64,000 nt of DNA from Dictyostelium discoideum (Eukaryota): assembly GCA_000004695.1 (NCBI GenBank), contig CM000154.2, forward strand, positions 3,264,001 through 3,328,000. Reading direction: 5' to 3'. A program made the translations under genes and the position numbers. The notes under the pieces are model-generated. The model had not been told where the DNA came from. It worked only from the letters and a program-made list of their open reading frames with translations, and did not search any database. Numbering within the stretch: position 1 is the first letter of the stretch; each line of letters starts with the position of its first letter. This document shows, in pieces, positions 1,452-26,241 of the stretch.

Positions 1452-1878
1452 TTAGTTATTAATTTTTTTACAACATTCACTGAAATGTTTAATTGTATTT
1501 AAAGCTTGTTTTTCATTTGAGAATGGACCTGTTAATCTAAATACAGAGGAGCAAGAAACATAGTTTAAACACATATCATAAAGTTCTGGGTTATTTAATT
1601 TCATTTCATCAAAATCTGGTAAACAATTAATTTGTTTTGCTAATTGATCAGAAAATAAAACATAATCACCAAATGGGAATAATGTCTTCATTTTTGCATT
1701 TCTAATTTCATTAATTTTAATTATATCTTGTCCCATTTCTTTTTCTGAAGGTAAATCTATTAATCCAGAAAATACATAGTTAATCCATCTAGATTGAAGT
1801 TCCAATACTTTTTTATAAAAAAAAAAAAAAAAAAAAAATTAGATTAATATTAAAATTATTATTATAATTATTATTTTA

Positions 1879-1911
<33 letters not shown>

Positions 1912-3137
1912 TTACATGAATAAAATGGAGTACCAAAAATTCCAACTAAACCTAAATTTTTAACTTTATGAGGAAAAGTAAAATTATATAATAAACATGG
2001 TACATAATTATCATTTGGATTAAATGATAATTTTTCTAAAATTTCTTTTTCAAAAAATGAAAAATTTAAATGATAACCAGTTGCAAAGATAATTTCATCA
2101 AATTCAATATTAATTATTGATTGATCCAATTGATTTAAGAATTCCAATGATTTATCATTTGAATTATTTAATAGATGATTTGATAAACATTGAATTTTAC
2201 CTTGTTTAATATTATCAATATAGGAATCGATACAAGTAAATAAAATTTGAAATGGTTTATCAAAATTAGTTTCATCATTTTGATAACTTGGTTCATTACA
2301 ATTATTACCAGATAATTGTTGTAAGAATTTATTCATTGCAAGGTTATATTCATTTTCAGGTAAATCTTTCATTTTATAAGAATTGGCTCTTAAACAGATG
2401 ATTAGGTCCACTGGAACACCATTATCATTTTCATCGATTTCATTACCATTTCCTTTTAATATATTTTTAATTCTTTTACTATTTGAAGGTATTGCCCATT
2501 CATTTAATTTTCCTTCACCATAGAGATAAACACTTTGACAACCTGAATTACAAAGTTCTGAAGCAATTTGTAAACCAGTACATGATTTACCAACAACTAA
2601 AACTCTTTTACCAATATATTCATTTGGTGATTTATATTGATTTGAATATCTATATCCACCAGTAAAATTTTTTAATGGTTCCATTGGAAATTGTCTTGGT
2701 TTATTATTCATTCCATTACCAACAATTAAGAAATCAAAAATTTTTGATTCACTTTTTTTACTTGAGGAATCTGTCCATTGGACTAACCATTTATTATTTT
2801 CGAGTTGTTTTACTTTTTCAACAGTACTACCAAATTTGATACAATTTAAAAGTCCAAAATGATTTGCATAATTTGATAGGTATTGATGAACTTTTTTTGG
2901 TGATAAAAATAGATCTTGATCTTCTGGATGTTGGAAATCTGAAAATGTCATTGAAAAATGAGATACATTGGTATGCATTGAATCCCAAGGTATAGCTTCA
3001 TCAAGTGACCAAACTCCACCAAATGTTTCTTTTTTTTCAAAAACAGTTGGTTCTAAACCACATTCTAATGCTGATTTACATGATGTTAAACCTGATGGAC
3101 CACTTCCAATTATACAAACTGTTTCACATCTATTCAT
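1452..3137 (-). CDS. Flavin-containing monooxygenase (FMO), about 525 aa, two exons: complement(join(1452..1807,1916..3137))
   Basis: The N-terminal FAD motif is IIGSGPSGL and the second dinucleotide motif is VLVVGKSCTGLQIA. The FMO signature FATGY is present. Donor TCAT|GTAATT and acceptor AAAAAG|TA give phase 1 on both sides, and the 108-nt intron is AT-rich. The downstream ORF 1452..1805 continues in frame; the ORF track shows its first codon as M, but it is a TTG. Confidence 0.8.
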
Positions 3138-4014: not shown

Positions 4015-5207
4015 TTATTTGCCTTTTTTTAATAATGTTTCAGATTTTTCTTTATTTTCATAACCTTTACAATTTAATAACATATCAGAGTAAGAAATAA
4101 TTGATTTGATAAAACTATATTTAACACCCAATTCGTAATAGTATTCACTCTTTTCTAAATCTATATCTATACCATCAATACCAAATTGAAATAAATAACC
4201 AAGTGAATTCAAAGACTCTAAAACATATATATTTGAATCTGTAAAGAATGAGCTATCACCATAATCATCTTGATCATCATCATCAAAATGAAGTGGTTTA
4301 AGACTTGCTTCATATAATAATGATAAACCAATGTTTGAATCTTTCTTTAATTTATCTACACCAACACCAATTAAATATAATGTTGAAAGATGAAAAAACC
4401 CATTTGATATATTACTTTCTTTAATTGATTTTGAAAAATATTTATATGCATTTCTATAATCTTCATATTCAAACATATACTCTTCACCAACATTATTTAA
4501 ATGATTAATTGTAATACGATTTTGACTTAAACTAGTTGAAATCATTTCTTCAACCATACCCAATTGATCGATTAGTATTGGTAAATAGCCTTTAAAGAAT
4601 GAATTGAATTTATGTTTTTCAATGAATAATTTAGCTTCATTTTCAAAGTTTCTAATATCACCAAATAAAGTTGAATTTCTATAATTCAATTTTTCATTTA
4701 CCAATTTTTTAAAATCAGTTACCTCTTTACATGATGGATTTAATTGATCAGCAGCTCCTAAAAATTGAATTGATTCATTATATTTTCCTTGAAATGATAA
4801 AATTTGAGATAATCTAAAATAACTACGATAAAACAATGGTGATTGTTTCATTGATTCAAATGAGTCAATTTTACTTTCTTCCAAGAGTGATCTAAATTCA
4901 TTTGGTTCAAAATTATTTAACTCTCTTGATAAATGCACTTTTTCATATCCTTTTAATGAACTTAACTTATAATATTCAAATTTTGAAATTGATCTATTTA
5001 AATAAAGTAATGATTTTAATTCACATAAATCCATACCACTTTTTTCAATTGGTGATTCTTTATTATAACCATTTAATTGATCAATACCCTTTGTATAATA
5101 TTCAATTGCTAAATTATAATTTTTTTTTGTATATTCAATATTACCAAGTTCTTTTAATTTAATTGATTCTTCAATTTTATTTTCTTTTTTTGTTGTGATT
5201 TTTGAGG

Positions 5208-5238
<31 letters not shown>

Positions 5239-5924
5239 ATTAGTGTTAGTTTTATTTGATAAATTTGATTTGGAATTTGGAATTTTATTAGTTGATTGTT
5301 GTGGTTTTTGAATATTTACTATATCCATAGTTTCAATTGATTGAATTGTATCTTCTAATTCACCTTTTAAATAATCATTCATTTCAATTAAAATATTAAT
5401 TAAATTTTGTTTTATATTTTTTAATTCACTTTCTTCAATTTTAAAATCTTTAATTAATATAACTTTTTTAAAAATTATAAAAAAAAAAAAAATATTGTTA
5501 ATTTTATAATTATTAATTTATTTTTAAAAGTAAATTAATTAATTAACTTACAATTATCATTAATTTGATTAATACTTGAAATTTGTTTATTTTCAAATGA
5601 TAATTTTTCTTTATCATTAATTTTGGTAAAATTGAAATTAATTAAAAGTGATGATAATAATTGTACATTGAAAGAATTGAGGTTTCCATTTGAAATAATA
5701 CTTTTTTGATAAAAATTATGGTCATTTGTTAAACAATTTGAATTGGTAAAGTGAGGATTCATACAAAGGAATTTATAAATTAACTCTCCATACTCTTTAC
5801 AATCTACCCAAGGTTTACCAATTTCAATTAACCAACGTTCTTTAAATTTATTTTCTAAAATTTGTTTAATCTTGATATTAATAATATTTGATAATTTAAA
5901 ATAATTAATAATATTATTTTTCAT
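4015..5924 (-). CDS. TPR-repeat protein, about 606 aa, two exons: complement(join(4015..5462,5552..5924)); the ORF-track entries 5535..5924 and 4015..5382 belong to one gene
   Basis: GATAATT|GTAAGT is the donor at 5551 and TAAAAAAG|TT the acceptor at 5463, with phase 1 matching on both sides. The splice joins MKNN...INDN to ...ILIKDFKIEESELKNIKQNLINILIEMNDYLKG in frame. TPR-like helices (LGNIEYTKKNYNLAIEYYTKGI) and a poly-Thr tract are present. Confidence 0.7.
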
Positions 5925-6256
5925 TTTTTTTTTTTTTTTTTTTTTTTTATTATTATTTATTAAGAAAGAGAGAGAGGGAGAGAATATATTTGTAAAAAAA
6001 AAAAAAAAGAGGAAATAATAATAATAAAAAAAAAAAAATTAAAAAATAAAAATACAAAAAAAAATAAAAAAAAAAAAAAAAAAAAAAAAGTGTTTTGAAC
6101 AACACCACATTTGGAAATTAAAAAAAAAAAAAAAATATAAAAAAAACAGTAATAACACATTTTTTTTTTTTGTTTTTTTTATTTTATACGAAAAAAAGTG
6201 CACTGAGAGTGAAATAAATAATGTTTTTTTTTTTGTTTTGCTTTTTTTTTTTTAGA

Positions 6257-9200
6257 TTAACCAAATTTTGGGAAATAATTCATTATTGTTTTCCAGTAAC
6301 TTTCTGGATGGGTTGAACAATGATTTTGATAAAAATGTATAAATAGTGTTCTAATTTGAGTAAGTCTTTGTTTTCTTCTTTCTTCAATCTCTTTGAAACT
6401 TAATGATTGACTATGATGACTATGTTGTTCATTTATATTTGATGTTGATTTTGATTTTTCATTATTATTATTATTTTGATTTTGATTTTGATTTTGATTT
6501 TGATTTTGATTTTGATTTTGATTTTGACCAACTTTATTAAGATTATTAATTTGATTTACTTTATTATTTGGTTGATTTTTGGTATTAATTTGATTTTTTA
6601 AAGTATCAAAATATTTATTTTCAAAAGAGAAAGCATTATCCCAACTTTGAGCTAAGCAATCACTATCATTATCTTCATCATCTGAAACCAATTTATGAGA
6701 TTTATCCTCTTCAGTCTCTTCACTTTGTTCACTACCAGTGAAACTACTAGATGGATGATAATTCTTTGGAGTTGAACCACCACCACTATTCAATGAACCA
6801 ATAATTCTTTTTTCAGTGAATGAACCCATCAATTGCCAACTACCACCAATTTCTGGTTCAACTTGAATATCATCATCTGATCCTCTTCTTCTCTTTGGTC
6901 CATTTGGTACATCCATTGGTATACTCGTACCTGAAGTTGCTGGTGATGTATGTAATTGGTGATGACCATGATGACCATGATGTCCATGATGTGATTGTTT
7001 AATCATAATAGATGATGATCCAAAACTACCAGCTATATTATTATTACTATTCATTGGTGAGTGAGAAATTGGTGTTGGCGGAGCTGATGTATTATTATTA
7101 TTGGTACTATTATTGGTACTATTATTGTTAGTGTTATTATTATTATTAAAATTATTATTATTATTATTATTACCAACTTTATTCATACCAATAAATAATT
7201 TTGGAGAATTATTTTGAGGAGTTACTGGTGCAGATTGAGAAATATCAATACCTTTTGTATTCCAACTACTTGGTGAAGAGTTTTTGTGTCCACCAATATT
7301 ACTATTATTATTACTATTTGATTTGTTTGATTTGTTTATATTTTTTACATTATTATTATTATTATTATTATTGTCTACAATATTTTTTCTATCTACATAA
7401 TTATTTACAATCTCTAATGGTTGTTGAGAATTTGAATTTTTACGATTACCAGTTGGAGTATTACCTTTATTATTTACAGATTGTTGTGATTGTGCTTGTT
7501 GTAACTGTTGTTTTAGTAATCCCATACCACTATTATTTGTAGTTTGTTGTTTTTCTTGTTGTTTATCTTGTTGTTTATCTTGTTGTTGTTGTTGATTTAA
7601 TTTATTAAAAGTATGAATTGAAAAATCCATTGAAGAGATGAAATCCAAGAAATAAAAACAGAAATAAAATATATCTTCACCTTTACCAGCTCTATCACAA
7701 AGTTGATGAGAGAATAAGAACCAATCGTAGGCAACCGTTAAAAAGAGCATTTCCCAATCCTTTAAAGATTGATGAACCTCACCATCAGCCCAAAGACTGA
7801 TTCTAAGTAATGAAATAAACAATGGTGTTCTATCCCATCCAGATATACAATGAACTAATAAACCAGATGGGTTATTATCATCAGATACATATTTTAATAA
7901 TAACTTGAAATAATTTTGTGTTAAATTTACTATTAAAAAGAGAAAAAAAAAAAAAAAAAATAATAGTTAATATATATCTATTTTTTTTTTATTTTTTTAT
8001 TTTTTAATATTAATATACTTACTTAAATCCCAAGTTTTATAAGATTCCCATGGTATCATTGGTAATTGATGATCTGGATGTAAATTTAATTCTGCTGGAT
8101 CTTCAATACCATCCCAAGAATAAAATAAATCTTTTCCACAATGTTGATTTCTATTAAAATCTGCAAAAAATTCTACACCAGGATAAGGAGTAGAAGAAAT
8201 TACAAAATCTTGATATCTTCGATGCATATCAACTTTTTCTGATGAACAAACAAAGAAACCAAACCTTTTTTTTTTTTTTTTAAAAAAATAAAAAATAAAA
8301 ATAAAGGTTAATGAAATTTGTTTTTATTATAATTATTATTATTATTTATTACTTACTTTTTCTTTTTATTTTCAACCATTAAATCACAAATGTATCTAAT
8401 ATTTAAATGTTTAATAACTAGAATATCATTATTTCTAAGATGTTCCATATCTAATTGTTGTTGTGCCTGTTGTTGTCGTATTTGAGTTGACTGTTGTTGT
8501 GCTTGTTGTTGATCATGTTGGCCTTCAACATGTGAATCATGATGTTGATAATGTTGATTAATAACTGAAGAAGTCATTGTACTATCATTTTTATTTAATC
8601 TATCAATATCAATTGAATCTTCAATCATACTATTAGTAATTGGATTATTTTGATTATTATTATTATTATTATTTTGATTATTATTATTATTATTAATTTG
8701 ATTATTATTATTATTTTGATTATTATTATTATTTTGATTATTATTATTATTACTAAACATTATAGATTGTGATAAAGAAGAAGTTGTTGGAGATGGAACA
8801 GAAGAAAATTGTTTTTTCATTGAATTAACACCAGATTGAAACATATATTCAATCTTTTGAGAGAGTGTTGAGGATCTACAAAGATTTTTATGATGATAAA
8901 ATATAACTGGAAATGGGAATCTTGTTCTTACACGTGCAAATCTAGATTGATCCAATAATTTTTCTAAATTACGAGAGAGTTCTGGATGAACGTGTTTATT
9001 CTTTTCTTTACATACTTTACATCCTGTCTCTAACTCGTGTTCAATAAAAATTAAATCTGGTGGGTATGTTGCGCATAATTCACCTTCTTTATTATTGATT
9101 AATGATATTTTATAATCTTTTTCAAATAATGTATTTACAATTTCTTGATATTTAAATAATTCCTTGTTTTTTTGTTTTGTTGTTGTTTTGTTTTAAATTA

Positions 9201-10463
9201 ATTAAATAATAAAAAAAAAAAAAAATTATTTAATATTAATATATATAATTATATAATATTAATAATAATTATTTTAAACTTACTTCATCTCTTTTACCAG
9301 GGAATGGTTGTTTATATCTTCTAAAATGAGCAAACATTTCGGCTAATTCAGATGCCAATGAATCACCACATGCAAGCGAGGGGTTAACTTCAAAAGAGTT
9401 CATTGTATTGGCATCGTTTGTCGTATTATCACCATTTGACGATATATCTTCAGAGACAACTATAGATGGTTCATCATCGTCATTGCTATTGATTGTGTTA
9501 TTATTATAGGAAACGAATTCTCTCTACTTATATTGCAAGTATTATTATTACTACTGCTGTCACTATTATTATTATTGTTTTTATTATTATTATTATTATT
9601 GTTATTATTATTATTATTACTGCTGCTGTTACTACTACTACCACTACTATCGTTTTCGACAGATTTTTTAGGGGATTGTGAACAAGGTGTATTTGAAGGC
9701 TTTATTGAAGAAATTAATTGTTCTGTTGTTGAGGATGGTGGTGTGCTAGAGGTAATTACCATTTTAATGGATTTGTTTTTTTAATGAGGTGAAAGTAATT
9801 GAGCGTATTCCTAGTGTGTGTCTTTTTTTTTTTTTTTTTTTTTTTTTTTNNNNNNNNNNNNNNNNNNNNNNNNNNNNNNNNNNNNNNNNNNNNNNNNNNN
9901 NNNNNNNNNNNNNNNNNNNNNNNNNNNNNNNNNNNNNNNNNNNNNNNNNTTCAAATAATGTATTTACAATTTCTTGATATTTAAATAATTCCTTGTTTTT
10001 TTGTTTTGTTGTTGTTTTGTTTTAAATTAATTAAATAATAAAAAAAAAAAAAAATTATTTAATATTAATATATATAATTATATAATATTAATAATAATTA
10101 TTTTAAACTTACTTCATCTCTTTTACCAGGGAATGGTTGTTTATATCTTCTAAAATGAGCAAACATTTCGGCTAATTCAGATGCCAATGAATCACCACAT
10201 GCAAGCGAGGGGTTAACTTCAAAAGAGTTCATTGTATTGGCATCGTTTGTCGTATTATCACCATTTGACGATATATCTTCAGAGACAACTATAGATGGTT
10301 CATCATCGTCATTGCTATTGATTGTGTTATTATTATTATTTGGTATTATTGGTGATATTGGACTTGGAATATCTTCATTGTTATTACTATTATTATTATT
10401 ATTATTATTTACATTTGGTTCATATGATACTTTTTTAAATTGCTTTGGTATATATGTATTTTC

Positions 10464-10505
<42 letters not shown>

Positions 10506-10958
10506 GTTATTGTTATTAGTACAATTATAGCTTTCATTTATTAAAATTTCGGATTTAGAATTTAATATCTCTTCATTTCTGCTGTTGTTATTATTATTGT
10601 CACAACTATTATTATTATTACTATTATTATAGGTTTCATTATTCTCTTCTACAGCAACTGCTTCTTCTAATGTTAAATCCATCATGAAAGGAAACGAATT
10701 CTCTCTACTTATATTGCAAGTATTATTATTACTACTGCTGTCACTATTATTATTATTATTATTGTTTTTATTATTATTATTATTATTATTATTGTTATTA
10801 TTATTATTATTATTATTACTGCTGTTACTACTACTACCACTACTATCGTTTTCGACAGATTTTTTAGGGGATTGTGAACAAGGTGTATTTGAAGGCTTTA
10901 TTGAAGAAATTAATTGTTCTGTTGTTGAGGATGGTGGTGTGCTAGAGGTAATTACCAT
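6257..10958 (-). CDS. Myotubularin-related phosphoinositide 3-phosphatase (CX5R active site HCISGWDRT), at least 4 exons: complement(join(6257..7929,8023..8238,8357..9162,[gap],10113..10958))
   Basis: Recalled MTM1 shows three collinear blocks: the catalytic loop VHCSDGWDRT vs LVHCISGWDRTPLFISLL here, the upstream block CETYP...SKFRSKGRFPVLSYYH vs CATYPPDL...SRFARVRTRFPFPVIFYHH here, and a downstream KDW...F.H block. All splice junctions (GTAAGT donors at 10112, 8356 and 8022; AG acceptors at 9163, 8239 and 7930) keep phase. There are very long N/Q-rich insertions. The 5' end passes through the 100-N gap and a duplicated segment (see findings). Confidence 0.75.
9121..9840 (-). pseudogene. Variant second copy of the myotubularin exon-2 5' end + intron 1 + exon 1, carrying a ~350-bp internal deletion that breaks the reading frame (ORF 9460..9762 ends ...FPIIITQSIAMTMMNHL*)
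   Basis: Positions 9121-9500 are essentially identical to 9950-10330 and 14881-15260. The copy then jumps to the equivalent of 10690 ('gattgtgttattattatag|gaaacgaattc'). It abuts the N-gap, so it may be a collapsed-repeat assembly artefact or a real tandem partial duplicate. Confidence 0.5.
9850..9949. other. Assembly gap (100 N)
   Basis: A run of exactly 100 'n' sits between poly-T at 9830-9849 and duplicated sequence that resumes at 9950. Confidence 0.99.
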
Positions 10959-11553
10959 TTTAATGGATTTGTTTTTTAATGAGGTGAAAGTAATTGAGCG
11001 TATTCCTAGTGTGTGTCTTTTTTTTTTTTTTTTTTTTTTTTTGGTTTTTTTTTTTTTTTAATTTATTTATTATTTTTTTTTTTTATTTTTTCTATTTTTT
11101 TTTATATTTTTTATTTTATTTTTTTTTTTTTTTATTTTGGTTTTTTTGAGTTTAACTTAATAAAAAAAAAAATAAAAAAAAATAAAAAAAAATAAAAAAT
11201 AAAAATTAAAAAAAAAAAAAAAAAAAAAAAAATAAAATAAAATAAAATAAAAAAAAAAATAAAGATAAACCTGAAAAAGAGAAATGATTATTTAAATATA
11301 CCTCTTTTTTTTTTAAGATTTAATTTTATATGTATTCAATATTTTTTATTTTAAAATTTAAATATCCATTTACAAACCAATTTTCAAAATTATTATTCAA
11401 GTTATCCAATAAAAATAGGCAATTTTCAATGACTAAAAAGGAAATACCATAAAGTTAAGATAGAATTAAATACATAATTAAGGAATTGATTTTTTTATTT
11501 TTTTTTTTTTTATTGGAATTGTTTAATTTAACCTAATGTTATTTTTCTGAATT

Positions 11554-13147
11554 CTATTTAATTATTTTTACATTTTTTGAAACATAAGGTTCAATTTGAT
11601 GTTTAAAACTTGTGAAAACTTTTACTTCCTTTACAGTATTAGGAATTGAACCAATTATTAATTCTTGTTTAATATCGCCTAAACGCAACGATTCAACACC
11701 ATCTGGTAATATACCTGGTGTTAATTTTTGATTGAATCCATCTTTTAAAGTAACACGAGTTACAGTATTAGGAATTGAACCAATTATTAATTCTTGTTTA
11801 ATATCGCCTAAATACAAGGATTTAACACCATCTGGTAATATACCTGGTGTTAATTTTTGATTGAATCCATCTTTTAAAGAGACAAGAGTTACAGTATTAG
11901 GAATTGAACCAATCATTAATTCTTGTTTAATATCGCCTAAATACAACAATTTAATACTATCTGGTAATATACCTGGTGTTAATTTTTGATTGAATCCATC
12001 CAATAAAGAGACATGAGTTACAGTATTAGGAATTGAACCAATCATTAATTCTTGTTTAATATCACCTAAATACAAGGATTTAACGCCATCTGGTAATATA
12101 CCAGGTGTTAATTTTTGATTGAATCTATCCAAGAGCATTACAGTAGATGGTAATTGATTTTTTAATTTTGATAAAATATTACAATTGTCTTTGAATGCTA
12201 TACCTTCATTCTCCTTAAATTTAAATGAATCATCCTCTATATAAACATAAAACTTTGAACTATCCCCTATATTTGGTAATTAGAATGATGTAAACATAAT
12301 TTATAAAAAAAACTGTATAAAGCTTACATTTAAAAAATTTATTTTTATTTTCATCGATTTCAATTATAAATCTACAATTATCTAAGGTATAAATTGATTT
12401 TAAATTATTTTTAATATCATCAATTATTTGATTATGGAAATGAATGATTTGATTATCGTATTCATTTAATTTATTTGAATTATTGATATTATTATTATTA
12501 TTTAATACTATTAATGATTGTTGATATTGTTTAATAATTTTAATTGTATCTCTATCAATAATAAAATCTTCTCCATTATCATAAATTTGTTGATCATTAA
12601 ATTTTATAATTTCATTTAATTTTTCAATAGTTGTAGTTCTATCATTTTCATTTTCATTATTATTATTAATTATAGTTGAAAGTATTTGATTATCATTATT
12701 GATTGAAGAAGTTATAATTGTATTTATTAATGTATTATTTTCAAAGGTTGTTTCTAATTGTTTTTTAATATCTAATTCTATGATTGAAATGATATCATGA
12801 ATTTTTTTAATTTCTTTTTTTAATGAATTATTATTAATATCAAATTGTGATTGAATTTCATTGTATTTATCATTTGATTCTTGTAATATTGTTTCATTGA
12901 TTTCTATTCTTTCAATTACTTTTTGGTATATATCATTTTTAAAATTATTCATTAATGAAAGAATATTTGAAGTTGATTCTAATGGATCAGTTTTATGACC
13001 ATGATGTTCACCTTTACTTGATGTACATTGAATACAACATGGTATTAATTTACAATCTAAACAAAAGAATACTATATCTTTATTTGGGTGAAGTGTACAC
13101 TTTTTATTATTATCAATATTATTTATTTTATTATGATTTGAAATCAT
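11554..13147 (-). CDS. B-box zinc finger + coiled coil + FNIP-repeat protein (cluster copy 1), about 510 aa: complement(join(11554..12266,12328..13147))
   Basis: The B-box motif is [36 protein letters not shown]. Splice AAAT|GTAAGC...CCAAATATAG|GG runs in phase 1 and creates Trp, joining the B-box exon to ...WDSSKFYVYIEDD...MLLDRFNQKLTPGILPDG. The second exon has about 7 FNIP repeats (FNQKLTPGILPxxVKxLxLGDIKQELIIGSIPNTVT). The start is probably the M of MISNHNK (13147); the longer ORF-track start reads through promoter poly-T. Confidence 0.8.
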
Positions 13148-13494
13148 TGTGTTTGGGATTGGTGTGGATGTAAAAAAAAAAAAAAAAAATTTGGAACCAG
13201 AAATTTTTATATGAGACACCAAAAATAAAAAAAAATAAAAAAAATAAAAATAAAATCGCTTAAAAAATTAAGAAAAACAAAATCTTTTTTTTTTTTTTTT
13301 TTTAAAAAATAAATAAATAATTAAATATTTATATTGTTATTGATAAAAATTTAAAAAAAGGAAAAATATTTTGAATTCAATCGTTAATCATTTTTTTTTT
13401 ATAAAAAAAAAAGATATAATTTAATTATATATACAATGTTTTTTAAATCTCTATTTTTGGAACATTTTAATAGTAAATTAAATTTAAATATGTT

Positions 13495-13575
13495 TGCTGA
13501 CATTAATATGGCTGCTGAAATTAATATGCATGTAAATTAATATGGATGCTAAAATTAATATGGGACACACTATTG
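13495..13575. repeat. Array of 4 tandem ~17-bp units '(c)tg(c/a)(t/a)aaattaatatgg' ending in '...atgggac'; a solo terminus related to the 18706-19322 palindromic element
   Basis: The units read ctgacattaatatgg / ctgctgaaattaatatgc / atgtaaattaatatgg / atgctaaaattaatatgggac. The same motif is the sub-terminal repeat of the TIR element at 19146-19322. The array lies about 350 bp upstream of gene copy 1. Confidence 0.4.
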
Positions 13576-13906
13576 GCAATTTTAAATCACTAAAAAATAT
13601 CATCATGGTACAGCGGATCAATTAAATGGATTTTGTAATTTGAGGGTAAAAACAAATTTACTCAAACCTGGAATTAAATATACCTAAACCCATTCAAATG
13701 TTACCATTTGACGCCATATGGTAGTAAACTACTATTAATCATATTGATTATTTTATTTAAATTTTCAATTAAAACATTACAATGAGCAGTTTTGCGATGA
13801 TTTGCTTTTTTAAAACTCTGTTGGAAAATTATTAATATTTATTATATTTGATGTTATTTCTTCATTTTATCTTGTTTTGTCATGATTAGTAGGTTGGCTG
13901 TACCTG

Positions 13907-14440
13907 TTAACAGTAGTTTCTTACACTCTTTACAGTATTAGGAATTGAACCAATCATTAATTCTTGTTTAATATCACCTAAATACAACCATTCAACACTA
14001 TCTGGTAATATACCTGGTGTTATTTTTTGATTGAATTCATTCAATAAAGAGACACTCGTTACAATATTAGGGATTGATCCAATCTCCAATTCTTGTTTAA
14101 TATCGCCTAAACTCAACCATTTAACACCAACTGGTAAAATGCCTGGTTTTAATCTTTGATTGAATCCATCCAATAAAGAGACATGAGCTACAGTATTAGG
14201 AATTGAGCCAATTATTAATTCTTGTTTAATATCACCTAAATACAAGGATTTAACACCAACTGGTAAAATGCCTGGTGTTAATTTTTGATTGAATCCATCC
14301 AATAGCATTACATTTGATGGTAATTGATTTTTTAATTTTGATGATGAAATATTACAATTGTCTTTGAATGCTATACCTTCATTCTCCTTAATTTTAAATG
14401 AATTACCCTCTATATAAATATAAAACTTTAAATTATCCCC
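13907..14440 (-). pseudogene. 5'-truncated FNIP-repeat exon fragment (about 4 repeats) with a diverged 3' end (...NTVKSVRNYC*)
   Basis: It is homologous to the exon-2 / intron / B-box-exon boundary of the intact copies up to 14440. There the sequence switches abruptly to myotubularin-derived sequence. Its 3' flank is shared with the degenerate fragment at 23845-23925. Confidence 0.6.
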
Positions 14441-14543
14441 TAATGTTGATTAATAACTGAAGAAGTCATTGTACTATCATTTTTATTTAATCTATCAATA
14501 TCAATTGAATCTTCAATCATACTATTAGTATTGGATTATTTTG

Positions 14544-14594
<51 letters not shown>

Positions 14595-15392
14595 TTGATT
14601 ATTATTATTATTTTGATTATTATTATTATTATTACTAAACATTATAGATTGTGATAAAATATAACTGGAAATGGGAATCTTGTTCTTACACGTGCAAATC
14701 TAGATTGATCCAATAATTTTTCTAAATTACGAGAGAGTTCTGGATGAACGTGTTTATTCTTTTCTTTACATACTTTACATCCTGTCTCTAACTCGTGTTC
14801 AATAAAAATTAAATCTGGTGGGTATGTTGCGCATAATTCACCTTCTTTATTATTGATTAATGATATTTTATAATCTTTTTCAAATAATGTATTTACAATT
14901 TCTTGATATTTAAATAATTCCTTGTTTTTTTGTTTTGTTGTTGTTTTGTTTTAAATTAATTAAATAATAAAAAAAAAAAAAAATTATTTAATATTAATAT
15001 ATATAATTATATAATATTAATAATAATTATTTTAAACTTACTTCATCTCTTTTACCAGGGAATGGTTGTTTATATCTTCTAAAATGAGCAAACATTTCGG
15101 CTAATTCAGATGCCAATGAATCACCACATGCAAGCGAGGGGTTAACTTCAAAAGAGTTCATTGTATTGGCATCGTTTGTCGTATTATCACCATTTGACGA
15201 TATATCTTCAGAGACAACTATAGATGGTTCATCATCGTCATTGCTATTGATTGTGTTATTATTATTATTTGGTATTATTGGTGATATTGGACTTGGAATA
15301 TCTTCATTGTTATTACTATTATTATTATTATTATTATTTACATTTGGTTCATATGATACTTTTTTAAATTGCTTTGGTATATATGTATTTTC

Positions 15393-15434
<42 letters not shown>

Positions 15435-16290
15435 GTTATTGTTATTAGTACAATTATAGCTTTCATTTATTAAAATTTCGGATTTAGAATTTAATATCTC
15501 TTCATTTCTGCTGTTGTTATTATTATTGTCACAACTATTATTATTATTACTATTATTATAGGTTTCATTATTCTCTTCTACAGCAACTGCTTCTTCTAAT
15601 GTTAAATCCATCATGAAAGGAAACGAATTCTCTCTACTTATATTGCAAGTATTATTATTACTACTGCTGTCACTATTATTATTATTATTATTGTTTTTAT
15701 TATTATTATTATTATTATTATTGTTATTATTATTATTATTATTATTACTGCTGTTACTACTACTACCACTACTATCGTTTTCGACAGATTTTTTAGGGGA
15801 TTGTGAACAAGGTGTATTTGAAGGCTTTATTGAAGAAATTAATTGTTCTGTTGTTGAGGATGGTGGTGTGCTAGAGGTAATTACCATTTTAATGGATTTG
15901 TTTTTTAATGAGGTGAAAGTAATTGAGCGTATTCCTAGTGTGTGTCTTTTTTTTTTTTTTTTTTTTTTTTTTGGTTTTTTTTTTTTTTTAATTTATTTAT
16001 TATTTTTTTATTTTATTTTTTCTATTTTTTTTTTATATTTTTTATTTAAATTTTTTTTTTTTTTTTTTTTTTTTATTTTGGTTTTTTTTGAGTTAAACTT
16101 AATAAAAAAAAAAAAAATAAAAAAAAAATAAAAAATAAAAATTAAAAAAAAAAAAAAAAAAAAAATAAAATAAAATAAAAAAAAAATAAAGATTAACCTA
16201 AAAAAAGAAATGATTATTTAAATATCCCTCTTTTTTTTTTTAAGATTTAATTTTATATGTATTCAATATTTTTTATTTTAAAATTTAAAT
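14441..16290 (-). pseudogene. Segmental duplicate of the myotubularin 5' region (part of exon 2 with a ~160-bp deletion, intron 1, complete exon 1 15042..15887, promoter), fused to FNIP sequence
   Basis: ORF 15027..15887 is 100% identical to 10098..10958. Positions 14455-14640 match 8561-8760 apart from poly-AAT length. The internal deletion is at 14660 ('gtgataaa|atataactgg'). The copy contains none of the catalytic exons. Confidence 0.65.
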
Positions 16291-16630
16291 ATGTTAAAAC
16301 ACTCTTTTTTTTTTTTTTTTTTTTTTTTTTTCAAGATTCAATTAAACACTGCCCTCTAAAGGAATAAAAGTAACAGTAATGTAAGTATTAAAAAAATTTT
16401 CAATATTATGCAAATTTCCATTATACTATCCTGATTTTTTTGAAATTTCAAAAAAAAAAAATATCTTTTTACAAATTATTATTCAAGTTATCTAATAAAA
16501 ATAGGCAATTTTCAATGACTAAAAAGGAAATACCATAAAGTTAAGATAGAATTTCCCAATTAAATACATAATTAAGGAATTGATTTTTTTTTTTTTTTTT
16601 TTTATTGGAATTGTTTAATTTAACCTAATG

Positions 16631-18518
16631 TTATTTTTCTGAATTCTTTTTAATTATTTTTACATTTTTTGAAACATAAGGTTCAATTTGATGTTTAAAA
16701 CTTGTGGAAACATTTACTTCCTTTACAGTATTAGGAATTGAACCAATTATTAATTCTTGTTTAATATCGCCTAAATTCAACGATTCAAAACCATCTGGTA
16801 ATATACCTGGTGTTAATTTTTGATTGAATCCATCTTCTAAAGTGACACGAGTTACAGTATTAGGAATTGAACCAATTATTAATTCTTGTTTAATATCACC
16901 TAAATCCAACGATTCAACACTATCTGGTAGAATACCTGGTGTTAATTTTTGATTGAATCCATCTTCTAAAGAGACATTCTTTACAGTATTAGGAATTGAA
17001 CCAATCATTAATTCTTGTTTAATATCACCTAAATCCAACGATTCAACACCTTCTGGTAGAATATCTGGTGTTAATATTTGATTGAATCCATCTTCTAAAG
17101 AGACAAGAGTTACAGTATTAGGAATTGAACCAATCATTAATTCTTGTTTAATATCACCTAAATACAACCATTTAACACTATCTGGTAATATACCTGGTGT
17201 TAATTTTTGATTGAATCCATCTTTTAAAGAGACAAGAGTTACAGTATTAGGAATTGATCCAATAATTAATTCTTGTTTAATATCACCAAAAAACAACCAT
17301 TCTACGCCATTTGGTAAAATACCTGGTGTCAATTTTTGATTGAATCCATCCAATAAAGAGACACGAGTTACAGTATTAGGAATTGAACCAATTATTAATT
17401 CTTGTTTAATATCACCTAAATACAAGGATTTAACGCCATCTGGTAATATACCAGGTGTTAATTTTTGATTGAATCCATCCAATAGCATTACATTTGATGG
17501 TAATTGATTTTTTAATTTTGATAAAATATTACAATTGTTTTTGAATGCTGTACCTTCATTCTCCTTAAATTTAAATGAATCACCCTCTATATAAACATAA
17601 AACTTTAAATTATCCCCTATATTTGGTTATTAGAATGATGTAAACATAATTTATAAAAAAAACTGTATAAAGCTTACATTCAAAAAATTCATTATTATTT
17701 TCATCGATTTCAATTTTAAATCTACAATTATCTAAGGTATAAATTGATTTTAAATTATTTTTAATATCATCAATTATTTGATTATGGAAATGAATGATTT
17801 GATTATCATATTCATTTAATTTATTTGAATTATCGATATTATTATTATTATTTAATACTATTAATGATTGTTGATATTGTTTAATAATTTTAATTGTATC
17901 TCTATCAATAATAAAATCTTCTCCATTATCATAAATTTGTTGATCATTAAATTTTATAATTTCATTTAATTTTTCAATGGTTGTAATTCTATCATTTTCA
18001 TTTTCATTTTCATTTTCATTTTTATTATTTTTATTATTAATTATAGTTGAAAGTATTTGATTATCATTATTGATTGAAGAAGTTATAATTGTATTTATTA
18101 ATGTATTATTTTCAAAGGTTTTTTCTAATTGTCTTTTAATATCTAATTCTATGATTGAAATGATGTCATGAATTTTTTTAATTTCTTTTCTTAATGAATT
18201 ATTATTATTATCAAATTGTGATTGAATTTCATTGTATTTATCATTTGATTCTTGTAATATTGTTTCATTGATTTCTATTCTTTCAATTACTTTTTGATAT
18301 ATATCATTTTTAAAATTATTCATAAATGAAAGAATATTTGAAGTTGATTCTAATGGATCAGTTTTATGACCATGATGTTCACCTTTACTTGATGTACATT
18401 GAATACAACATGGTATTAATTTACAATCTAAACAAAAGAATACTATATCTTTATTTGGGTGAAGTGTACATTTTATATTATTATCAATATTATTTATTGT
18501 ATTATGATTTGATACCAT
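16631..18518 (-). CDS. B-box + FNIP-repeat protein (cluster copy 3), about 608 aa, about 9 FNIP repeats: complement(join(16631..17616,17678..18518))
   Basis: The architecture and the phase-1 intron (GAAT|GTAAGC...ATATAG|GG) match copy 1. The ORF is intact, but the usual 5' flank is replaced from 18531 by foreign sequence. Confidence 0.8.
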
Positions 18519-18705
18519 TGTGTTTGGGATTGGTGTGGATGTATTGAGAACCGGTTCTCAATCAATCGCACAACCTATTTATCAAACTAATCAAGGTATA
18601 AAAATGCAACTATAAATGTTACTATGTAAATACAACCATTCAACACTATCTGGTAATATATGTGGTGTTAGTTTTTGATTGAATCCATTTTTTAAATAGA
18701 CATGT

Positions 18706-19322
18706 GTCCCATGCCAAAATAAAACGAAACTTCATCTGTTAGTAACAAAAGAGTAAGCAGAAGAGTCAATAATTAAAATAAAAAATATTATTTTAATTTT
18801 TTTTTTTTTTTTTTTTTTTTATTTTTTTTTATTTTTTTTTATTTTTAATTTTTTATTTATAATTTTTTTTTTTTGTGAGCCGGCTAGACATAAATGAATA
18901 ATAAAAAAATATATACCAACTAAAAAAAAAAGAAATGAAAATAAATTATAAAATTAATAATAAAAATAAAAAGATAAAAATAAATAAAAGATATAAATAA
19001 AATAATATGAAAATTTTTTTTTTTTTTTTTATATTATTATAATTATTTTTTTTTAGTTGATATATATTTTTTTAATAATAATTTTAGTGCTAAAATTTTG
19101 TTTATATTTGAGATGATTATTAATTAAATGACTTTGACTTTTTTTTTTTTTCTATGCCAAAATTACCATATTAATTTCAGCAGCCATATTAATTTCGGCA
19201 GCTATGTACATGCTGAAATTAATATGGCTGCTGAAATTAATACGGTAATTTTGGCAGACGTAAGTCCCATGCCAAAATTAATATGGCTGCTGAAATTAAT
19301 ATGGTAATTTTGGCATGGGACA
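18706..19322. mobile_element. About 620-bp non-autonomous palindromic (MITE-like) element bounded by 15-bp TIRs GTCCCATGCCAAAAT / ATTTTGGCATGGGAC, with nested sub-terminal hairpins
   Basis: The left TIR is at 18706-18720, inserted into an FNIP-homologous fragment (18630-18705). The right TIR is at 19308-19322. 19143-19262 and 19265-19322 are near-perfect hairpins built from 'gctgaaattaatatgg' units. No ORF lies inside. Confidence 0.45.
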
Positions 19323-19949
19323 AATAAATAAGGAATAAATTATTTAAAAAAAATAAAAATTCTTATATTTTAATATTTTTTATTTAAATATTTATTGTAC
19401 ACCCATTATTTTTTATCATTTTATTATAGTTTTTAATAATATACAATATCATATATTAAACTATAATTTAATGTTTTAAAAAATGAGAAATTACAATAGT
19501 ATTATTTCCTATTAATTGTTGTATATTATTAAATTATAGTTTTATGTTTTAAAAAATGAGAAATTACAATAGTATATTGTGGTAAATCAATAAATTTTTT
19601 ATAATTTAATGACAAATTAATATTCAATTTTAATTAAATAATTTTAGATTTTATCAATTTTTAATTTATTAAAATATATTTTTATTATGGCCAGATTCTT
19701 TTTTATTATTTTATGATAATGTGTGATTAATTATTAATTAGAAATTGATATTAGTTTGTTAAAAATTTTATTACATTATAATATCGTTTCTTAAAATATG
19801 AGTTTTTGCGGTAGTTTAATTTCTCACAAAATAGTAAAATTTCTTAGGTTTTTTTTCTCTGGTGAATACATAATTAAGGAATTGATTTTTTTTTTTTTTT
19901 TTTTTTTATTGGAATTGTTTAATTTAACCTAATGTTATTTTTCTGAATT

Positions 19950-22900
19950 CTATTTAATTATTTTTACATTTTTTGAAACATAAGGTTCAATTTGATGTTT
20001 AAAACTTGTGGAAACATTTACTTCCTTTACAGTATTAGGAATTGAACCAATTATTAATTCTTGTTTAATATCGCCTAAATTCAACGATTCAACACCATCT
20101 GGTAATATACCTGGTGTTAATTTTTGATTGAATCCATCTTCTAAAGTGACACTCTTTACAGTATTAGGAATTGAACCAATTATTAATTCTTGTTTAATAT
20201 CACCTAAATCCAACGATTCAACACTATCTGGTAGAATACCTGGTGTTAATTTTTGATTAAATCCATCTTCTAAAGAGACATGAGTTACAGTATTAGGAAT
20301 TGAACCAATCATTAATTCTTGTTTAATATCACCTAAATACAACGATTCAACACCTTCTGGTAGAATACCTGGTGTTAATTTTTGATTGAACCTATCTTCT
20401 AACGAGACATTCGTTACAGTATTAGGAATTGAACCAATTATTAATTCTTGTTTAATATCGCCTAAATACAACAATCCAACACTTTCTGGTAATATACGTG
20501 GTGTTAATTTTTGATTGAATCCATCTTTTAAAGAGACACTCGTTACAGTATTAGGAATTGAACCAATTATTAATTCTTGTTTAATATCACCTAAATACAA
20601 CAATCCAACACTTTCTGGTAAAATACCTGGTGTTAATATTTGATTGAATCCATCTTCTAAAGAGACAAGAGTTACAGTATTAGGAATTGAACCAATCATT
20701 AATTCTTGTTTAATATCACCTAAATACAACAATTTAACACTATCTGGTAATATACCTGGTGTTAATTTTTGATTGAATCCATCTTTTAAAGAGACAAGAG
20801 TTACAGTATTAGGAATTGATCCAATAATTAATTCTTGTTTAATATCACCTAAATCCAACAATTTAATACTATCTGGTAATATACCTGGTGTTAATTTTTG
20901 ATTGAATCCATCTTTTAAAGTGACACGAGTTACAGTATTAGGAATTGAACCAATCATTATTTCTTGTTTAATATCACCTAAATACAACCATTCAACACTA
21001 TCTGGTAAAATACCTGGTGTTAATTTTTGATTGAATCTATCCAATAAAGAGATATGAGTTACAGTATTAGGAATTGAACCAATCATTAATTCTTGTTTAA
21101 TATCACCTAAATGCAACAATTTAACACTATCTGGTAATATACATGGTGTTAATTTTTGATTGAATCCATCTTTTAAAGAGACACGAGTTACAGTATTAGG
21201 AATTGAACCAATTATTAATTCTTGTTTAATATCGCCTAAATCCAACAATTTAATACTATCTGGTAATATACCTGGTGTTAATTTTTGATTGAATTCATCT
21301 TTTAAAGATACACGAGTTACAGTATTAGGAATTGAACCAATCATTATTTCTTGATTAATATCACCTAAATACAACCATTCAACACTATCTGGTAATATAC
21401 CTGGTGTTAATTTTTGATTGAATCCATCTTTTAAAGAGACAAGAGTTACAGTATTAGGAATTGAACCAATTATTAATTCTTGTTTAATATCACCTAAATA
21501 CAAGGATTTAACACCATCTGGTAATATACCTGGTGTTAATTTTTGATTGAATCCATCTTTTAAAGAGACATGGATTACAGTATTAGGAATTGAACCAATC
21601 ATTAATTCTTGTTTAATATCACATAAATCCAACAATTTAATACTATCTGGTAATATACCTGGGGTTAATTTTTGATTGAATCTATCCAATAAAGAGATAT
21701 GAGTTACAGTATTAGGAATTGAACCAATTATTAATTCTTGTTTAATATCGCCTAAATCCAACAATTTAATACTATCTGGTAATATACCTGGTGTTAATTT
21801 TTGATTGAATTCATCTTTTAAAGATACATGAGTTACAGTATCAGGAATTGAACCAATTATTAATTCTTGTTTAATATCACCTAAATACAAGGATTTAACA
21901 CAATATGGCAATATACCTGGTGTTAATTTTTGATTGAATCTATCCAATAAAGAGATATGGATTACAGTATTAGGAATTGAACCAATCATTAGTTCTTGTT
22001 TAATATCACCTAAATACAAGGATTTAATACTATCTGGTAATATGCATGGTGTTAATATTTGATTGAATCCATCCAATAAAGAGACATGGATTACAGTATT
22101 AGGAATTGAACCAATTATTAATTCTTGTTTAATATCACCTAAATACAAGGATTCAACGCCATCTGGTAATATACCAGGTGTTAATTTTTGATTGAATCCA
22201 TCCAATAGCATTACAGTTGATGGTAATTGATTTTTTAATTTTGATAAAATATTACAATTGTTTTTGAATGCTGTACCTTCATTCTCCTTAAATTTAAATG
22301 AATTACCCTCTATATAAACATAAAACTTTAAATTATCCCCTATATTTGGTAATTAGAATGATGTAAACATAATTTATAAAAAAAACTGTATAAAACTTAC
22401 ATTTAAAAAATTTATTATTATTTTCATCGATTTCAATTATAAATCTACAATTATTTAAGAAATAAATTGATTTTAAATTATTTTTAATATCATCAATTAT
22501 TTGATTATGGAAATGAATGATTTGATTATCGTTTTCATTTAATTTATTTGAATTATTGATATTATTATTATTATTTAATACTATTAATGATTGTTGATAT
22601 TGTTTAATAATTTTAATTGTATCTCTATCAATAATAAAATCTTCTCCATTATCATAAATTTGTTGATCATTAAATTTTATAATTTCATTTAATTTTTCAA
22701 TAGTTGTAGTTCTATCATTTTCATTTTCATTATTATTATTAATTATAGTTGAAAGTATTTGATTATCATTATTGATTGAAGAAGTTATAATTGTATTTAT
22801 TAATGTATTATTTTCAAAGGTTGTTTCTAATTGTTTTTTAATATCTAATTCTATGATTGAAATGATATCATGAATTTTTTTAATTTCTTTTTTTAATGAA

Positions 22901-23220
22901 TTATTATTAATATCAAATTGTGATTGAATTTCATTGTATTTATCATTTGATTCTTGTAATATTGTTTCATTGATTTCTATTCTTTCAATTACTTTTTGAT
23001 ATATATCATTTTTAAAATTATTCATTAATGAAAGAATATTTGAAGTTGATTCTAAGGGATCAGTTTTATGACCATGATGTTCACCTTTACTTGATGTACA
23101 TTGAATACAACATGGTATTAATTTACAATCTAAACAAAAGAATACTATATCTTTATTTGGGTGAAGTGTACATTTTATATTATTATCAATATTATTTATT
23201 GTATTATGATTTGATACCAT
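19950..23220 (-). CDS. B-box + FNIP-repeat protein (cluster copy 4), about 1,069 aa with about 24 FNIP repeats: complement(join(19950..22339,22401..23220))
   Basis: The B-box exon and the intron (AAAT|GTAAGT...ATATAG|GG, phase 1) are the same as in copies 1 and 3. Exon 2 is a single 2.39-kb open frame of near-identical 96-nt FNIP units. Confidence 0.8.
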
Positions 23221-23626
23221 TTTGTTTGGGGTTAATGTTGATTTAAAAAAAAAAAAAATTTGTTTTCGGAAATTTTTATATGAGACTTAATCCACCACCA
23301 AAAATCAAAAAAAAAAAATAAAAATAAAATCACTTAAAAAATTAAGAAAAAAAAAAACAAAATCATTTTTTTTTTTTATAATATTATTATTAAATAATTA
23401 AATAATTAAATATTTTTATTATTATTGATAATTTTTTGAAAAAAAAGAAAAATATTTTGAGTTAAATAATTAATCATTTTTTTTTATAAAAAAAAAAAGA
23501 TATTGCAACAAGATCTCAAAAATATCTTGTTAATACTAACATTTATTTAATTTCATGAAATGTTCTAAATTTAATTTTCAAAAAAAAAAAAAAAAATTTT
23601 TAATTATAATTTCAATTTCACAATAG

Positions 23627-23830
23627 ATATTAGATACCAGATATTAAAATGTCACACAACTTCAACAACTACAATAACATATTCAATTAGTTAATCAACA
23701 AACACAACAACGTCAACAACAACTAAATAATCACTCAACACCACCATCGTCACCTAATGTTACAACACCAATAACTTCAGCAACAATAACCAACACAATA
23801 GATATCTGGTATCTAATATCTATTGTATGA
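23627..23830. mobile_element. About 200-bp A/C-rich segment flanked by 22-bp inverted repeats (caatagatattagataccagatat ... atagatatctggtatctaatatctattg)
   Basis: The inverted repeats are read directly. The interior has retroelement-like A/C strand bias and only short ORFs. It lies in the copy-4 promoter region. Confidence 0.3.
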
Positions 23831-23924
23831 AATTATTGTAAAATATTTGATGTTATTTCTTCATTTTATCTTGTTTTGCCATATGATTAGTGGGTTGGTT
23901 GTACCTGTTAATGGTAGTTTCTTG

Positions 23925-25311
23925 AATAGGAAATTCTTCTCATTCTCTGGTAGTGATAGCATTTTCTGGTAAAATATCTGGTGTTAATTTTTGATTGAAT
24001 CCTTCTAATAAAAAGATATTCGTTACAGTATTAGGTATTGAACCAATTATTAATTCTTGTTTGATATCACCTAAATCCAATGATCCAACACTATCTGGTA
24101 ATATACCTGGTGTTAATTTTTGATTAAATCCATCTTCTAAAGTGACATTCATTACAGTATTAGGAATTGAACCAATTATTAATTCTTTTTTAATATCACC
24201 TAAATACAACCATTCAACACCATCTGGTAATATACCTGGTGTTAATTTTTGATTGAATCATCTTTTAAAGAGACAAGAGTTGCACTATCAGGAATTGAAC
24301 CAATCATTAATTCTTGTTTAATATCATACAAATGCAAACATTTAACACTATTTGGTAATATACCTGGTGTTAATTTTTGATTGAATCCATCCAATAAATC
24401 GACATTCGTTACAGTATTAGGAATTGAACCAATCTCTTATTCTTGTTTAATGTCACCTAAATACAATGAACCAAGACGATTTGGTAATATACCTGGTGTT
24501 AATTTTTGATTGAATCCATCTAGTAAAGAGATACTCGTTACAGTATTAGGAATTGAACCAATTATTAGTTCTTGTTTAATATCACCTAAATACAAAGATT
24601 TAACACCAACTGGTAAAATGCCTGGTGTTAATATTTGATTGAATCCATCCAATAGCATTACACGTGATGGTAATTGATTTTTTAATTTTGATAAAATATT
24701 ACAATTGTTTTTGAATGCTATATCTTCATTCGTCTTAAATTTAAATGAATCACCCTCTATATAAACATGAAACTTTGAATTATCCCCTATATTTGATAAT
24801 TAGAATGATGTGAACATAATTTATAAAAAACTGACTAAAGCTTACATTCAAAAAATTTATTATTATTTTCATCGATTTCAATTTTAAATCTACAATTATC
24901 TAAGGTATAAATTGATTTTAAATTATTTTTAATATCATCAATTATTTCATTATGGAAATGAATGATTTGATTATCGTATTCATTTAATTTATTTGAATTA
25001 TTGATATTATTATTATTATTTAATACTATTAATGATTGTTGATATTGTTTAATAATTTTAATGGTATCTCTATCAATAATAAAATCTTCTCCATCATTTT
25101 CATTTTCATTTTTACTACTACTATTGCCAACATTATTTTGCGATGCATCATTGGTGGCATTAGTAGTTGTAGTTGTAGTGGTAGTTGAATCGATGTTTTT
25201 AAGTTTGGAACTGATATCAGAATGTTCATCAATGGATGGATGTATAAATGATTGAATTTGAAAAAGATTATCTGCTATTGGTCTTTCTTCAAGTTGTGAT
25301 TTATCAATATA

Positions 25312-25368
<57 letters not shown>

Positions 25369-25841: not shown

Positions 25842-26072
25842 TGTGTTTGGAATTAATGTCGATATTAAAAAAAAAAAAAATTAAAATTTTGTAAAAAAAA
25901 AAAAAATTAAAAAAAACACTTAAAAAATTAAGAAAAAAAACAAAATCTTGCATGGGCTATATTAATTTTTTTAATCAATCCACCAGTTTTTATTGTTCTG
26001 ATATAAAATAAAAAGGATTAAAAATATTTCTTTTTTTTTATTTATTTCCTATATACCATTTTTTATTCTTTT

Positions 26073-26203: not shown

Positions 26204-26241
<38 letters not shown>

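Follow-up and report, generated by a model that had tools for sequence, protein, structure and literature searches.

MTMR14 and the related myotubularin phosphatases are 3-phosphatases of PtdIns3P and PtdIns(3,5)P2. MTMR14 (hJumpy) belongs to the myotubularin group without a PH-GRAM domain (PMC6563779). In the AX4 chromosome 5 reference of Dictyostelium discoideum, a gene of this type is interrupted by a scaffold gap, with part of its 5' end present on both sides. The arrangement resembles the false duplications that arise from unmerged overlapping contig ends and the cross-joining of paralogues: identical sequence flanks a fixed-size run of Ns, one side veers into paralogue sequence after a perfect repeat, and the reference becomes collinear with an independent assembly once the Ns, the foreign tail and one of the copies are taken out. 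It departs from the usual false duplication in that the piece that appears misplaced is the exact sequence of a neighbouring pseudogene, not a haplotype or an error-laden read, and in that this pseudogene seems to hold the real gene's sequence in return. The pseudogene itself is similar to unprocessed (duplicative) pseudogenes, as it keeps an intron, is truncated on its 3' side, lies in a tandem duplicate and carries frame-breaking deletions, including one of 352 bp seen in the independent assembly and in the misplaced tail. Unlike a typical member of that class, its unique sequence has no point substitutions relative to the parent, solely deletions and changes in repeat length, and it would therefore be very young or homogenised by gene conversion. 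Judged from these sequence comparisons, the duplication at the gap is very probably an assembly artefact, and the phosphatase gene single and intact.

The MTMR14-type gene

The window analysed is a 64,000-nucleotide stretch of the AX4 reference (GCA_000004695.1, contig CM000154.2, positions 3,264,001 to 3,328,000). It also encodes cupB, cupF, HD-phosphohydrolase and PGAM proteins (exact matches) and DDB_G0289781 (100%). AX2-214 is a sister axenic strain of AX4 with the same NC4 parent. For comparison, the corresponding gap-free locus (no N) of a near-identical D. discoideum strain, hereafter L002, was taken from chromosome CM142511.1 of GCA_054883475.1, the product of a de novo Nanopore and Illumina project that includes the lab strain AX2-214 and has an N50 of 5.3 Mb (PMC12745789). 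The strain behind this assembly is not AX4 itself but presumably AX2-214.

The real gene lies on the minus strand and consists of four exons and three introns (121, 92 and 93 bp) over a 3873-bp span, encoding 1188 amino acids without stops (Table 1). In L002, the annotated product of the gene at 5801-9673 likewise has 1188 residues; the splice model has no exact match in the protein collection, and its agreement with the deposited L002 annotation is by length only. A single intact orthologue, with an annotated length of 1230 aa, is present in the sister species D. cf. discoideum.

Several features make this an MTMR14/Jumpy-type gene, predicted to encode a phosphoinositide phosphatase. Exon 4 contains the Cys-X5-Arg active-site loop HCISGWDR (VHCISGWDRT). 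A one-way homology search with the 335-aa core returned 693 matches at E≤1e-10, and the named top matches were all MTMR14, with 45-50% identity, 94-99% query coverage and E values from 1e-83 to about 1e-99 (lowest 2e-99). Neither the core construct nor the full 1188 aa matched a GRAM or PH domain, which is an absence of match only, although one that agrees with the PH-GRAM-free architecture of MTMR14. The Dictyostelium protein scores below the threshold of the Pfam Myotub-related family (PF06602): the core construct reached 21.3 bits against a gathering cut-off of 25, and the full 1188 aa gave no match. Many named MTMR14 matches likewise list no Pfam domain. The protein also differs from MTMR14 in being far longer, with Asn/Gln-rich inserts of the Dictyostelium type and a 280-aa N-terminal extension. 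The phosphatase searches returned zero D. discoideum proteins, including the products annotated in the new assemblies, and are thus uninformative on the AX4 annotation.

Table 1 Features of the locus in window coordinates
Feature	Position	Strand	Basis
Exon 1 of the real MTMR14-type gene, 846 nt, phase 0, ATG at 10958	10113..10958	-	ORF; splice model unique for the annotated 1188 aa; identical to L002
Rest of the real gene: exon 2 9162..8357, exon 3 8264..8023, exon 4 7929..6257 including stop codon	6257..9162	-	Splice model, L002 identity, homologues
Perfect 614-bp repeat common to gene and pseudogene (14652-15265), probable site of the false join	8894..9507	-	100%, 0 gaps; both copies also identical in L002
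Overlap copy A, apparently genuine and contiguous with the gene body: exon 2 5' end 9121-9162, intron 1 9163-9283, exon 1 3' part 9284-9507	9121..9507	-	100% identical to 9950-10336; L002 6423-15916 equals window 9507-1 with 0 mismatches
Probably misplaced tail, directly after the 352-bp junction: pseudogene version of the exon 1 5' part (ATG 9762-9760) plus upstream sequence, ending in poly-T 9823-9849	9508..9849	-	100% identical to L002 1160-1499, inside the pseudogene copy there
Scaffold gap, 100 N	9850..9949	.	The window's only N run; L002 crosses the locus without extra sequence
Overlap copy B, start of the right-hand contig, apparently a redundant second version of 9121-9507	9950..10336	-	L002 has the sequence once here
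352-bp exon 1 segment (codons 91-207 plus 1 nt), in the real gene, missing from the pseudogene	10337..10688	-	Conserved D. purpureum motifs; D. cf. discoideum orthologue has the equivalent
Copy 3, truncated pseudogene copy of the gene 5' end, ~5 kb upstream of the gene	14441..16292	-	Window self-comparison
Copy 3 block with the real gene's version (352-bp segment and real-type microsatellite lengths), probably mis-assembled	15266..15947	-	L002 block has the deletion and pre-gap-type variants

Sequence on the two sides of the gap

By NCBI convention, 100 Ns denote a gap of unknown length, and the N run here is presumably such a placeholder. Because the flanking contigs overlap, the true gap length would be negative. 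In a self-comparison of the window, the Ns are flanked on either side by the same 387 bp at 100% identity, and the first base of the right-hand contig (9950) is also the first base of this match. Read on the minus strand, the block comprises the first 42 nt of exon 2 (the second copy at 9950-9991), the 121-bp intron 1 bounded by GTAAGT...AG (9992-10112) and the 224 nt at the 3' end of exon 1. The initial annotation had recognised 9121-9500 and 9950-10330 as the same sequence with this exon-intron content, and was correct to within a few bases.

Past 9507, the pre-gap copy skips to the equivalent of 10689, such that 352 bp are absent. As 352 is not a multiple of three, the reading frame is broken, bearing out the frame-breaking deletion of ~350 bp noted initially; the pre-gap exon 1 is reduced to 479 nt (479 mod 3 = 2) and runs into a stop after 100 codons. 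Motifs encoded in the missing stretch (SRxEEILNSKSEILINESYN and YIPKxFKKVxY) are conserved in D. purpureum. At the junction, GTGTTATTATTAT is followed directly by AGGAAACGAATTC, and there is no microhomology. A spliced-out intron or a cDNA-derived tail was ruled out as the source of the deletion, since the segment's coding-strand ends are TTCATG...CCAAATA and not GT..AG, and intron 1 is kept. Beyond the junction, 9508-9847 is only 94.9% identical to 10689-11042 of the real gene, from which it differs by an ATT run that is 15 bp shorter, a changed ATT/CTG repeat, one extra T and the length of a poly-T run. The left contig stops inside a poly-T run (9823-9849).

The post-gap sequence is instead indistinguishable from a third copy of the gene's 5' end. 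Copy 3 lies within a ~5-kb tandem segmental duplication in which the neighbouring B-box/FNIP gene was copied as well. This pseudogene copy retains intron 1 but has neither the equivalent of 8776-8893 (118 bp) nor anything downstream of 8549. In the reference, the post-gap sequence 9950-11030 matches copy 3 (14879-15960) at 100% identity, and the 286-aa ORFs at 10098-10958 and 15027-15887 are identical, as had been stated when the post-gap copy was first described as intact. Exact look-ups of the two diagnostic ORFs (286-aa intact and 100-aa deletion-type) in public read-derived assemblies gave no match.

Comparison with a gap-free assembly

Two collinear matches to L002 account for the gene and its upstream region. 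L002 1500-6809 corresponds to window 15265-9950 (2 mismatches, 2 gaps) and L002 6423-15916 to window 9507-1, and the post-gap copy therefore runs directly into the gene body by way of the 387-bp overlap. When 9508-10336 (829 bp) is removed from the window, the 3873-bp gene span becomes base-for-base identical to that of L002. The artefact reading favoured initially thus agrees with a gap-free long-read assembly and with the single, intact orthologue of D. cf. discoideum; the alternative then offered, in which part of the gene is truly duplicated in tandem and the gene thereby disrupted, is not supported. It could be argued that the long-read assembly is the one in error and has collapsed a true duplication, as Nanopore assemblies can do with repeat arrays. 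We give this next to no credence: single long reads easily span both the repeat unit of only ~5 kb and the 614-bp perfect repeat, L002 keeps the two paralogous copies separate, the outcome is an intact conserved ORF, and the assembly of a second species is single-copy as well.

The same comparison locates the pre-gap tail. L002 1160-2113 equals window 9847-8894 over 954 bp, at 100% and without gaps, yet it sits at the pseudogene position, with flanks that match window 15973-17141 and 14441-15265, that is, copy 3. The sequence at 9508-9849 is therefore best read as pseudogene sequence that would have been joined to the gene body through the 614-bp repeat. Given this exact match, a defect of sequencing or cloning does not account for the deletion, which is taken to be genuine sequence of the pseudogene copy 5 kb away. 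Its clean ends without microhomology, in low-complexity, AT-rich surroundings, might have suggested that a single clone extending the left contig had lost part of its insert, for example through AT-rich insert loss in E. coli. Such an origin is extremely improbable, however, as the deletion and all four small length variants recur in a clone-free Nanopore and Illumina assembly; L002 refutes it unless L002 was itself built on the AX4 reference, and that assembly is described as de novo (PMC12745789).

A different source for the left contig would be a mixed AX4 culture in which some cells had undergone NAHR across the 614-bp repeat, giving a minority deletion allele that fuses the pseudogene tail to the gene body. 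The structure of the left contig is exactly what such a deletion product would give, but an in-silico false join within the perfect 614-bp repeat yields the same structure without extra biology, and a minority allele leaves the real-gene version in reference copy 3 unexplained; we regard it as very unlikely.

The remaining differences between AX4 and L002 over 17.1 kb are confined to homopolymer and microsatellite lengths and three A/C sites beside poly-T, with one exception: in the copy 3 block 15266-15947, every AX4/L002 difference is one by which the pre-gap tail and the post-gap copy can also be told apart. Since the L002 pseudogene carries the 352-bp deletion, the reference copy 3 is probably chimeric, holding the real gene's version in this block as a reciprocal error. 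The contiguity of copy 3 had been used in the initial annotation to argue for an artefact, and while that conclusion stands, its premise of an intact copy 3 probably does not.

Under the artefact reading, the genome would contain one intact MTMR14/Jumpy-type gene and, ~5 kb upstream, a pseudogene with 118-bp and 352-bp deletions and slightly different microsatellites. The error would most likely have originated from read misplacement in the repeat. During assembly, pseudogene reads starting in the 614-bp repeat may have been attached to the body of the real gene and have run through the 352-bp deletion to the long poly-T, so that the resulting left contig stops at 9849. The true 5' end would be carried by the right contig, which starts at 9950 within the same repeat. 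As the contig ends agree for 387 bp and then diverge, they would never have been merged and would have been scaffolded with a 100-N placeholder, while in exchange the pseudogene position at 15266-15947 was presumably filled with the real gene's version. AX4 would then be like AX2 at this locus.

The reference as written would be matched by an AX4-specific extra partial tandem duplication, absent from AX2, in the order gene body, repeat, deletion-type exon 1, unknown sequence, and a second exon 2 start with intron 1 and intact exon 1. AX4 and AX2 are known to differ structurally, the chromosome 2 duplication of AX4 being one example (PMC12745789). It is nevertheless very unlikely that AX4, but not AX2, has a third partial 5' copy here together with a pseudogene returned by conversion to the intact form. 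Past the repeat, nothing in the left contig is unique, its last 342 bp being 100% the pseudogene's own and stopping in poly-T, and once the 829 bp are cut out the gene is exactly identical to that of the other lab strain. Three copies and a gene-conversion-like replacement in copy 3 would be needed, whereas one reciprocal read mix-up covers both anomalies. If the third copy were real, the reference would be right, and very recent recombination and gene conversion would have occurred between lab strains through the 614-bp repeat.

Consequences for the AX4 reference

If the duplication is an artefact, the finding adds no new biology and its value lies mainly in curation, the AX4 reference being the standard of the Dictyostelium community. 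At present, the only MTMR14-type gene found in the window appears in this reference with a gap inside it and a frame-broken 5' end before it, and the pseudogene next to it is given an intact first exon. Gene models, knock-out and CRISPR design, read mapping and orthologue inventories can be led astray by either error. The repair would be fully specified: positions 9508-10336 are to be removed and the deletion-type sequence put into copy 3, which would leave a single intact MTMR14-type phosphatase gene beside its pseudogene.

Duplicated sequence around a gap in a phosphatase gene

The window contains a single run of N, of exactly 100 bases (9850-9949). Self-comparison revealed 387 bp of 100% identity on its two sides (9121-9507 and 9950-10336), and past 9507 the left copy continues at the equivalent of 10689, without 10337-10688. 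This 352-bp deletion is not a multiple of three, and has neither microhomology nor GT..AG ends. The tail beyond it (9508-9847) is only 94.9% identical to 10689-11042: its ATT run is 15 bp shorter, its ATT/CTG repeat is altered and it has one extra T. Further on, the left contig ends within a poly-T run (9823-9849). The duplication and deletion described in the initial annotation are correct as features of the reference.

The affected gene lies on the minus strand, and its four exons were set by open reading frames and splice signals. The three-intron model (121, 92 and 93 bp) is unique and encodes 1188 aa, and the annotation of GCA_054883475.1, a near-identical D. discoideum strain, gives a 1188-residue product. 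With the pre-gap sequence, exon 1 is 479 nt, loses the frame and reaches a stop after 100 codons. The phosphatase core contains the Cys-X5-Arg loop VHCISGWDRT, and a 335-aa core construct matches best the MTMR14 (Jumpy) phosphatases of animals and of other amoebozoans (identity 45-50% over 94-99% of the construct, E down to 2e-99). The core scores just under the cut-off for Pfam Myotub-related, and a Pfam domain search detected no PH-GRAM domain, as expected for MTMR14, which likewise lacks it (PMC6563779). Homology searches and an exact look-up of the 1188-aa model returned no D. discoideum entry for the phosphatase from the large protein collection.

Phosphatase gene features and B-box/FNIP array members in the window
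Feature	Position	Strand	Basis or detail
Exon 1	10958..10113	-	ORF and splice signals
Intron 1	10112..9992	-	121 bp, GTAAGT..AG
Exon 2	9991 (= 9162) to 8357	-	ORF and splice signals
Exon 3	8264..8023	-	ORF and splice signals
Exon 4	7929..6257	-	ORF and splice signals
B-box/FNIP member	11554-13222	-	
B-box/FNIP fragment	13907-14308	-	
B-box/FNIP member	16631-18518	-	
B-box/FNIP member	19950-23220	-	
B-box/FNIP member	about 23965-25841	-	

The locus in an independent assembly

A third copy of the gene's 5' end, at 14441-16292, is 100% identical in the window to 8894-9507 (614 bp) and 9950-11030, and is missing both the 118 bp of 8776-8893 and all sequence 3' of 8549. It is a duplicative pseudogene, apparently young, about 5 kb upstream of the intact gene, belonging to a tandem duplicate that took along the adjacent B-box/FNIP gene.

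New D. discoideum assemblies come from a de novo Nanopore and Illumina project on ten isolates, among them the lab strain AX2-214 (N50 5.3 Mb) (PMC12745789). A cluster mate (P0158) of the window's TPR/Sel1 protein led to 22 kb without any N on chromosome CM142511.1 (5,288,541 bp) of GCA_054883475.1, here called L002. This assembly appears to be AX2-214, because its proteins are identical to those of AX4 and no substitution occurs across 9.5 kb.

In BLAST against the window, L002 6423-15916 matched 9507-1 with 0 mismatches and L002 1500-6809 matched 15265-9950 with 2 mismatches and 2 gaps. These matches overlap by the 387-bp block, and therefore the post-gap copy continues directly into the gene body as a single copy. 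Removing 9508-10336 from the window (829 bp, made up of the 342-bp tail, the 100 N and 387 bp of redundant overlap) yields a 3873-bp gene span base-for-base identical to L002 5801-9673. The deletion-bearing sequence is real, since L002 1160-2113 matches window 9847-8894 without gaps at 100% over 954 bp, and it is sited at the pseudogene: its two flanks in L002 correspond to window 15973-17141 and 14441-15265. A cloning deletion as the source of the 352-bp loss is excluded, because this clone-free assembly carries the same deletion.

At 15266-15947 the reference has the real gene's version, with the 352-bp segment and real-type repeat lengths, whereas L002 has the deletion-type version; each difference between the two coincides with a difference between pre-gap tail and post-gap copy. 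A second assembly error, reciprocal to the one at the gap and 5 kb away from it, is probable here. A true duplication specific to AX4 is improbable, as it requires three copies plus conversion of the pseudogene and has no unique sequence in its support. Less probable still is a recombination-deletion allele carried by a minority of the sequenced culture, which would yield an identical left contig but leaves the pseudogene unexplained.

Outside 15266-15947, AX4 and L002 differ across 17.1 kb only in intergenic homopolymer and microsatellite lengths and at three A/C sites. These sole base substitutions (11065, 11069 and 15995; A in AX4, C in L002) lie in T-rich tracts adjoining long poly-T; an error of sequencing or polishing in one of the two assemblies is more probable here than divergence between strains.

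In the sister species D. cf. discoideum (GCA_054859235.1) the orthologue occurs once and is intact; it is annotated as a product of 1230 aa and contains the equivalent of the 352-bp segment. This segment encodes codons 91-207, which include SRxEEILNSKSEILINESYN and YIPKxFKKVxY, motifs also conserved in protein P0001 of D. purpureum. The orthologue and these motifs together indicate that the intact version is the functional one and the deletion a pseudogene lesion. That the long-read assembly collapsed a true duplication is unlikely in view of the 5-kb unit, the conserved, intact reading frame and the second species. Annotated products in the new assemblies are of 1188 aa and 1230 aa; the D. 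purpureum model P0001 is a 307-aa N-terminal fragment only.

Neighbouring genes

The adjoining TPR/Sel1 gene (spliced 5924..5552 and 5462..4015) shows 100% identity to DDB_G0289781, and four further AX4 proteins match exactly along the window: cupB, cupF, an HD phosphohydrolase and a PGAM-family protein. These matches identify the window as chromosome 5 of AX4. The genes cupB and cupF, which encode calcium up-regulated proteins of 769 aa each, form a tandem pair (49382-52081 and 53424-56122; 91% DNA identity). The minus-strand tandem array of B-box zinc-finger and FNIP-repeat genes (11381-25900) has 129-bp (43-aa) FNIP repeats of 85-95% identity; such arrays are prone to assembly collapse or expansion, and L002 agrees in the portion compared, up to 17141. 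A giant gene (30597-44444, +), spread over two or more ORFs (among them 333 aa and 4240 aa), has Csf1_N/BLTP1_N domains and is homologous to bridge-like lipid transfer protein 1 (Tweek/Csf1). The window start (1-1001) is the interior of a non-LTR retrotransposon, whose L002 counterpart (14916-19948) carries RVT_1 and Exo_endo_phos domains; window ORF 285-1001 alone has no Pfam match. Ordinary neighbours at 26235-27248 (-), 45104-49120 (+) and 1839-3137 (-) comprise an O-methyltransferase, a protein kinase, a RhoGEF/IQ protein and an FMO-like monooxygenase (first exon).

Probable origin of the apparent duplication

The tandem duplication is very probably not real but a correctable reference assembly error of a well-known kind. 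The sequence identities and the alternative structure were observed directly, and the read-level history can be reconstructed as follows, on the assumption that AX4 equals AX2 at this locus. Starting from an intact gene and a pseudogene sharing a perfect 614-bp repeat, pseudogene reads beginning in that repeat would have been joined onto the real gene's body. The resulting left contig crosses the deletion and ends in poly-T, and the right contig, carrying the true 5' end, starts 387 bp ahead of the repeat end. Because the contig ends disagree after the repeat, they would have been left unmerged and scaffolded with a conventional 100-N gap, and the real gene's reads may have taken the consensus at the pseudogene position. 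The use of the correction is practical, for annotation only.
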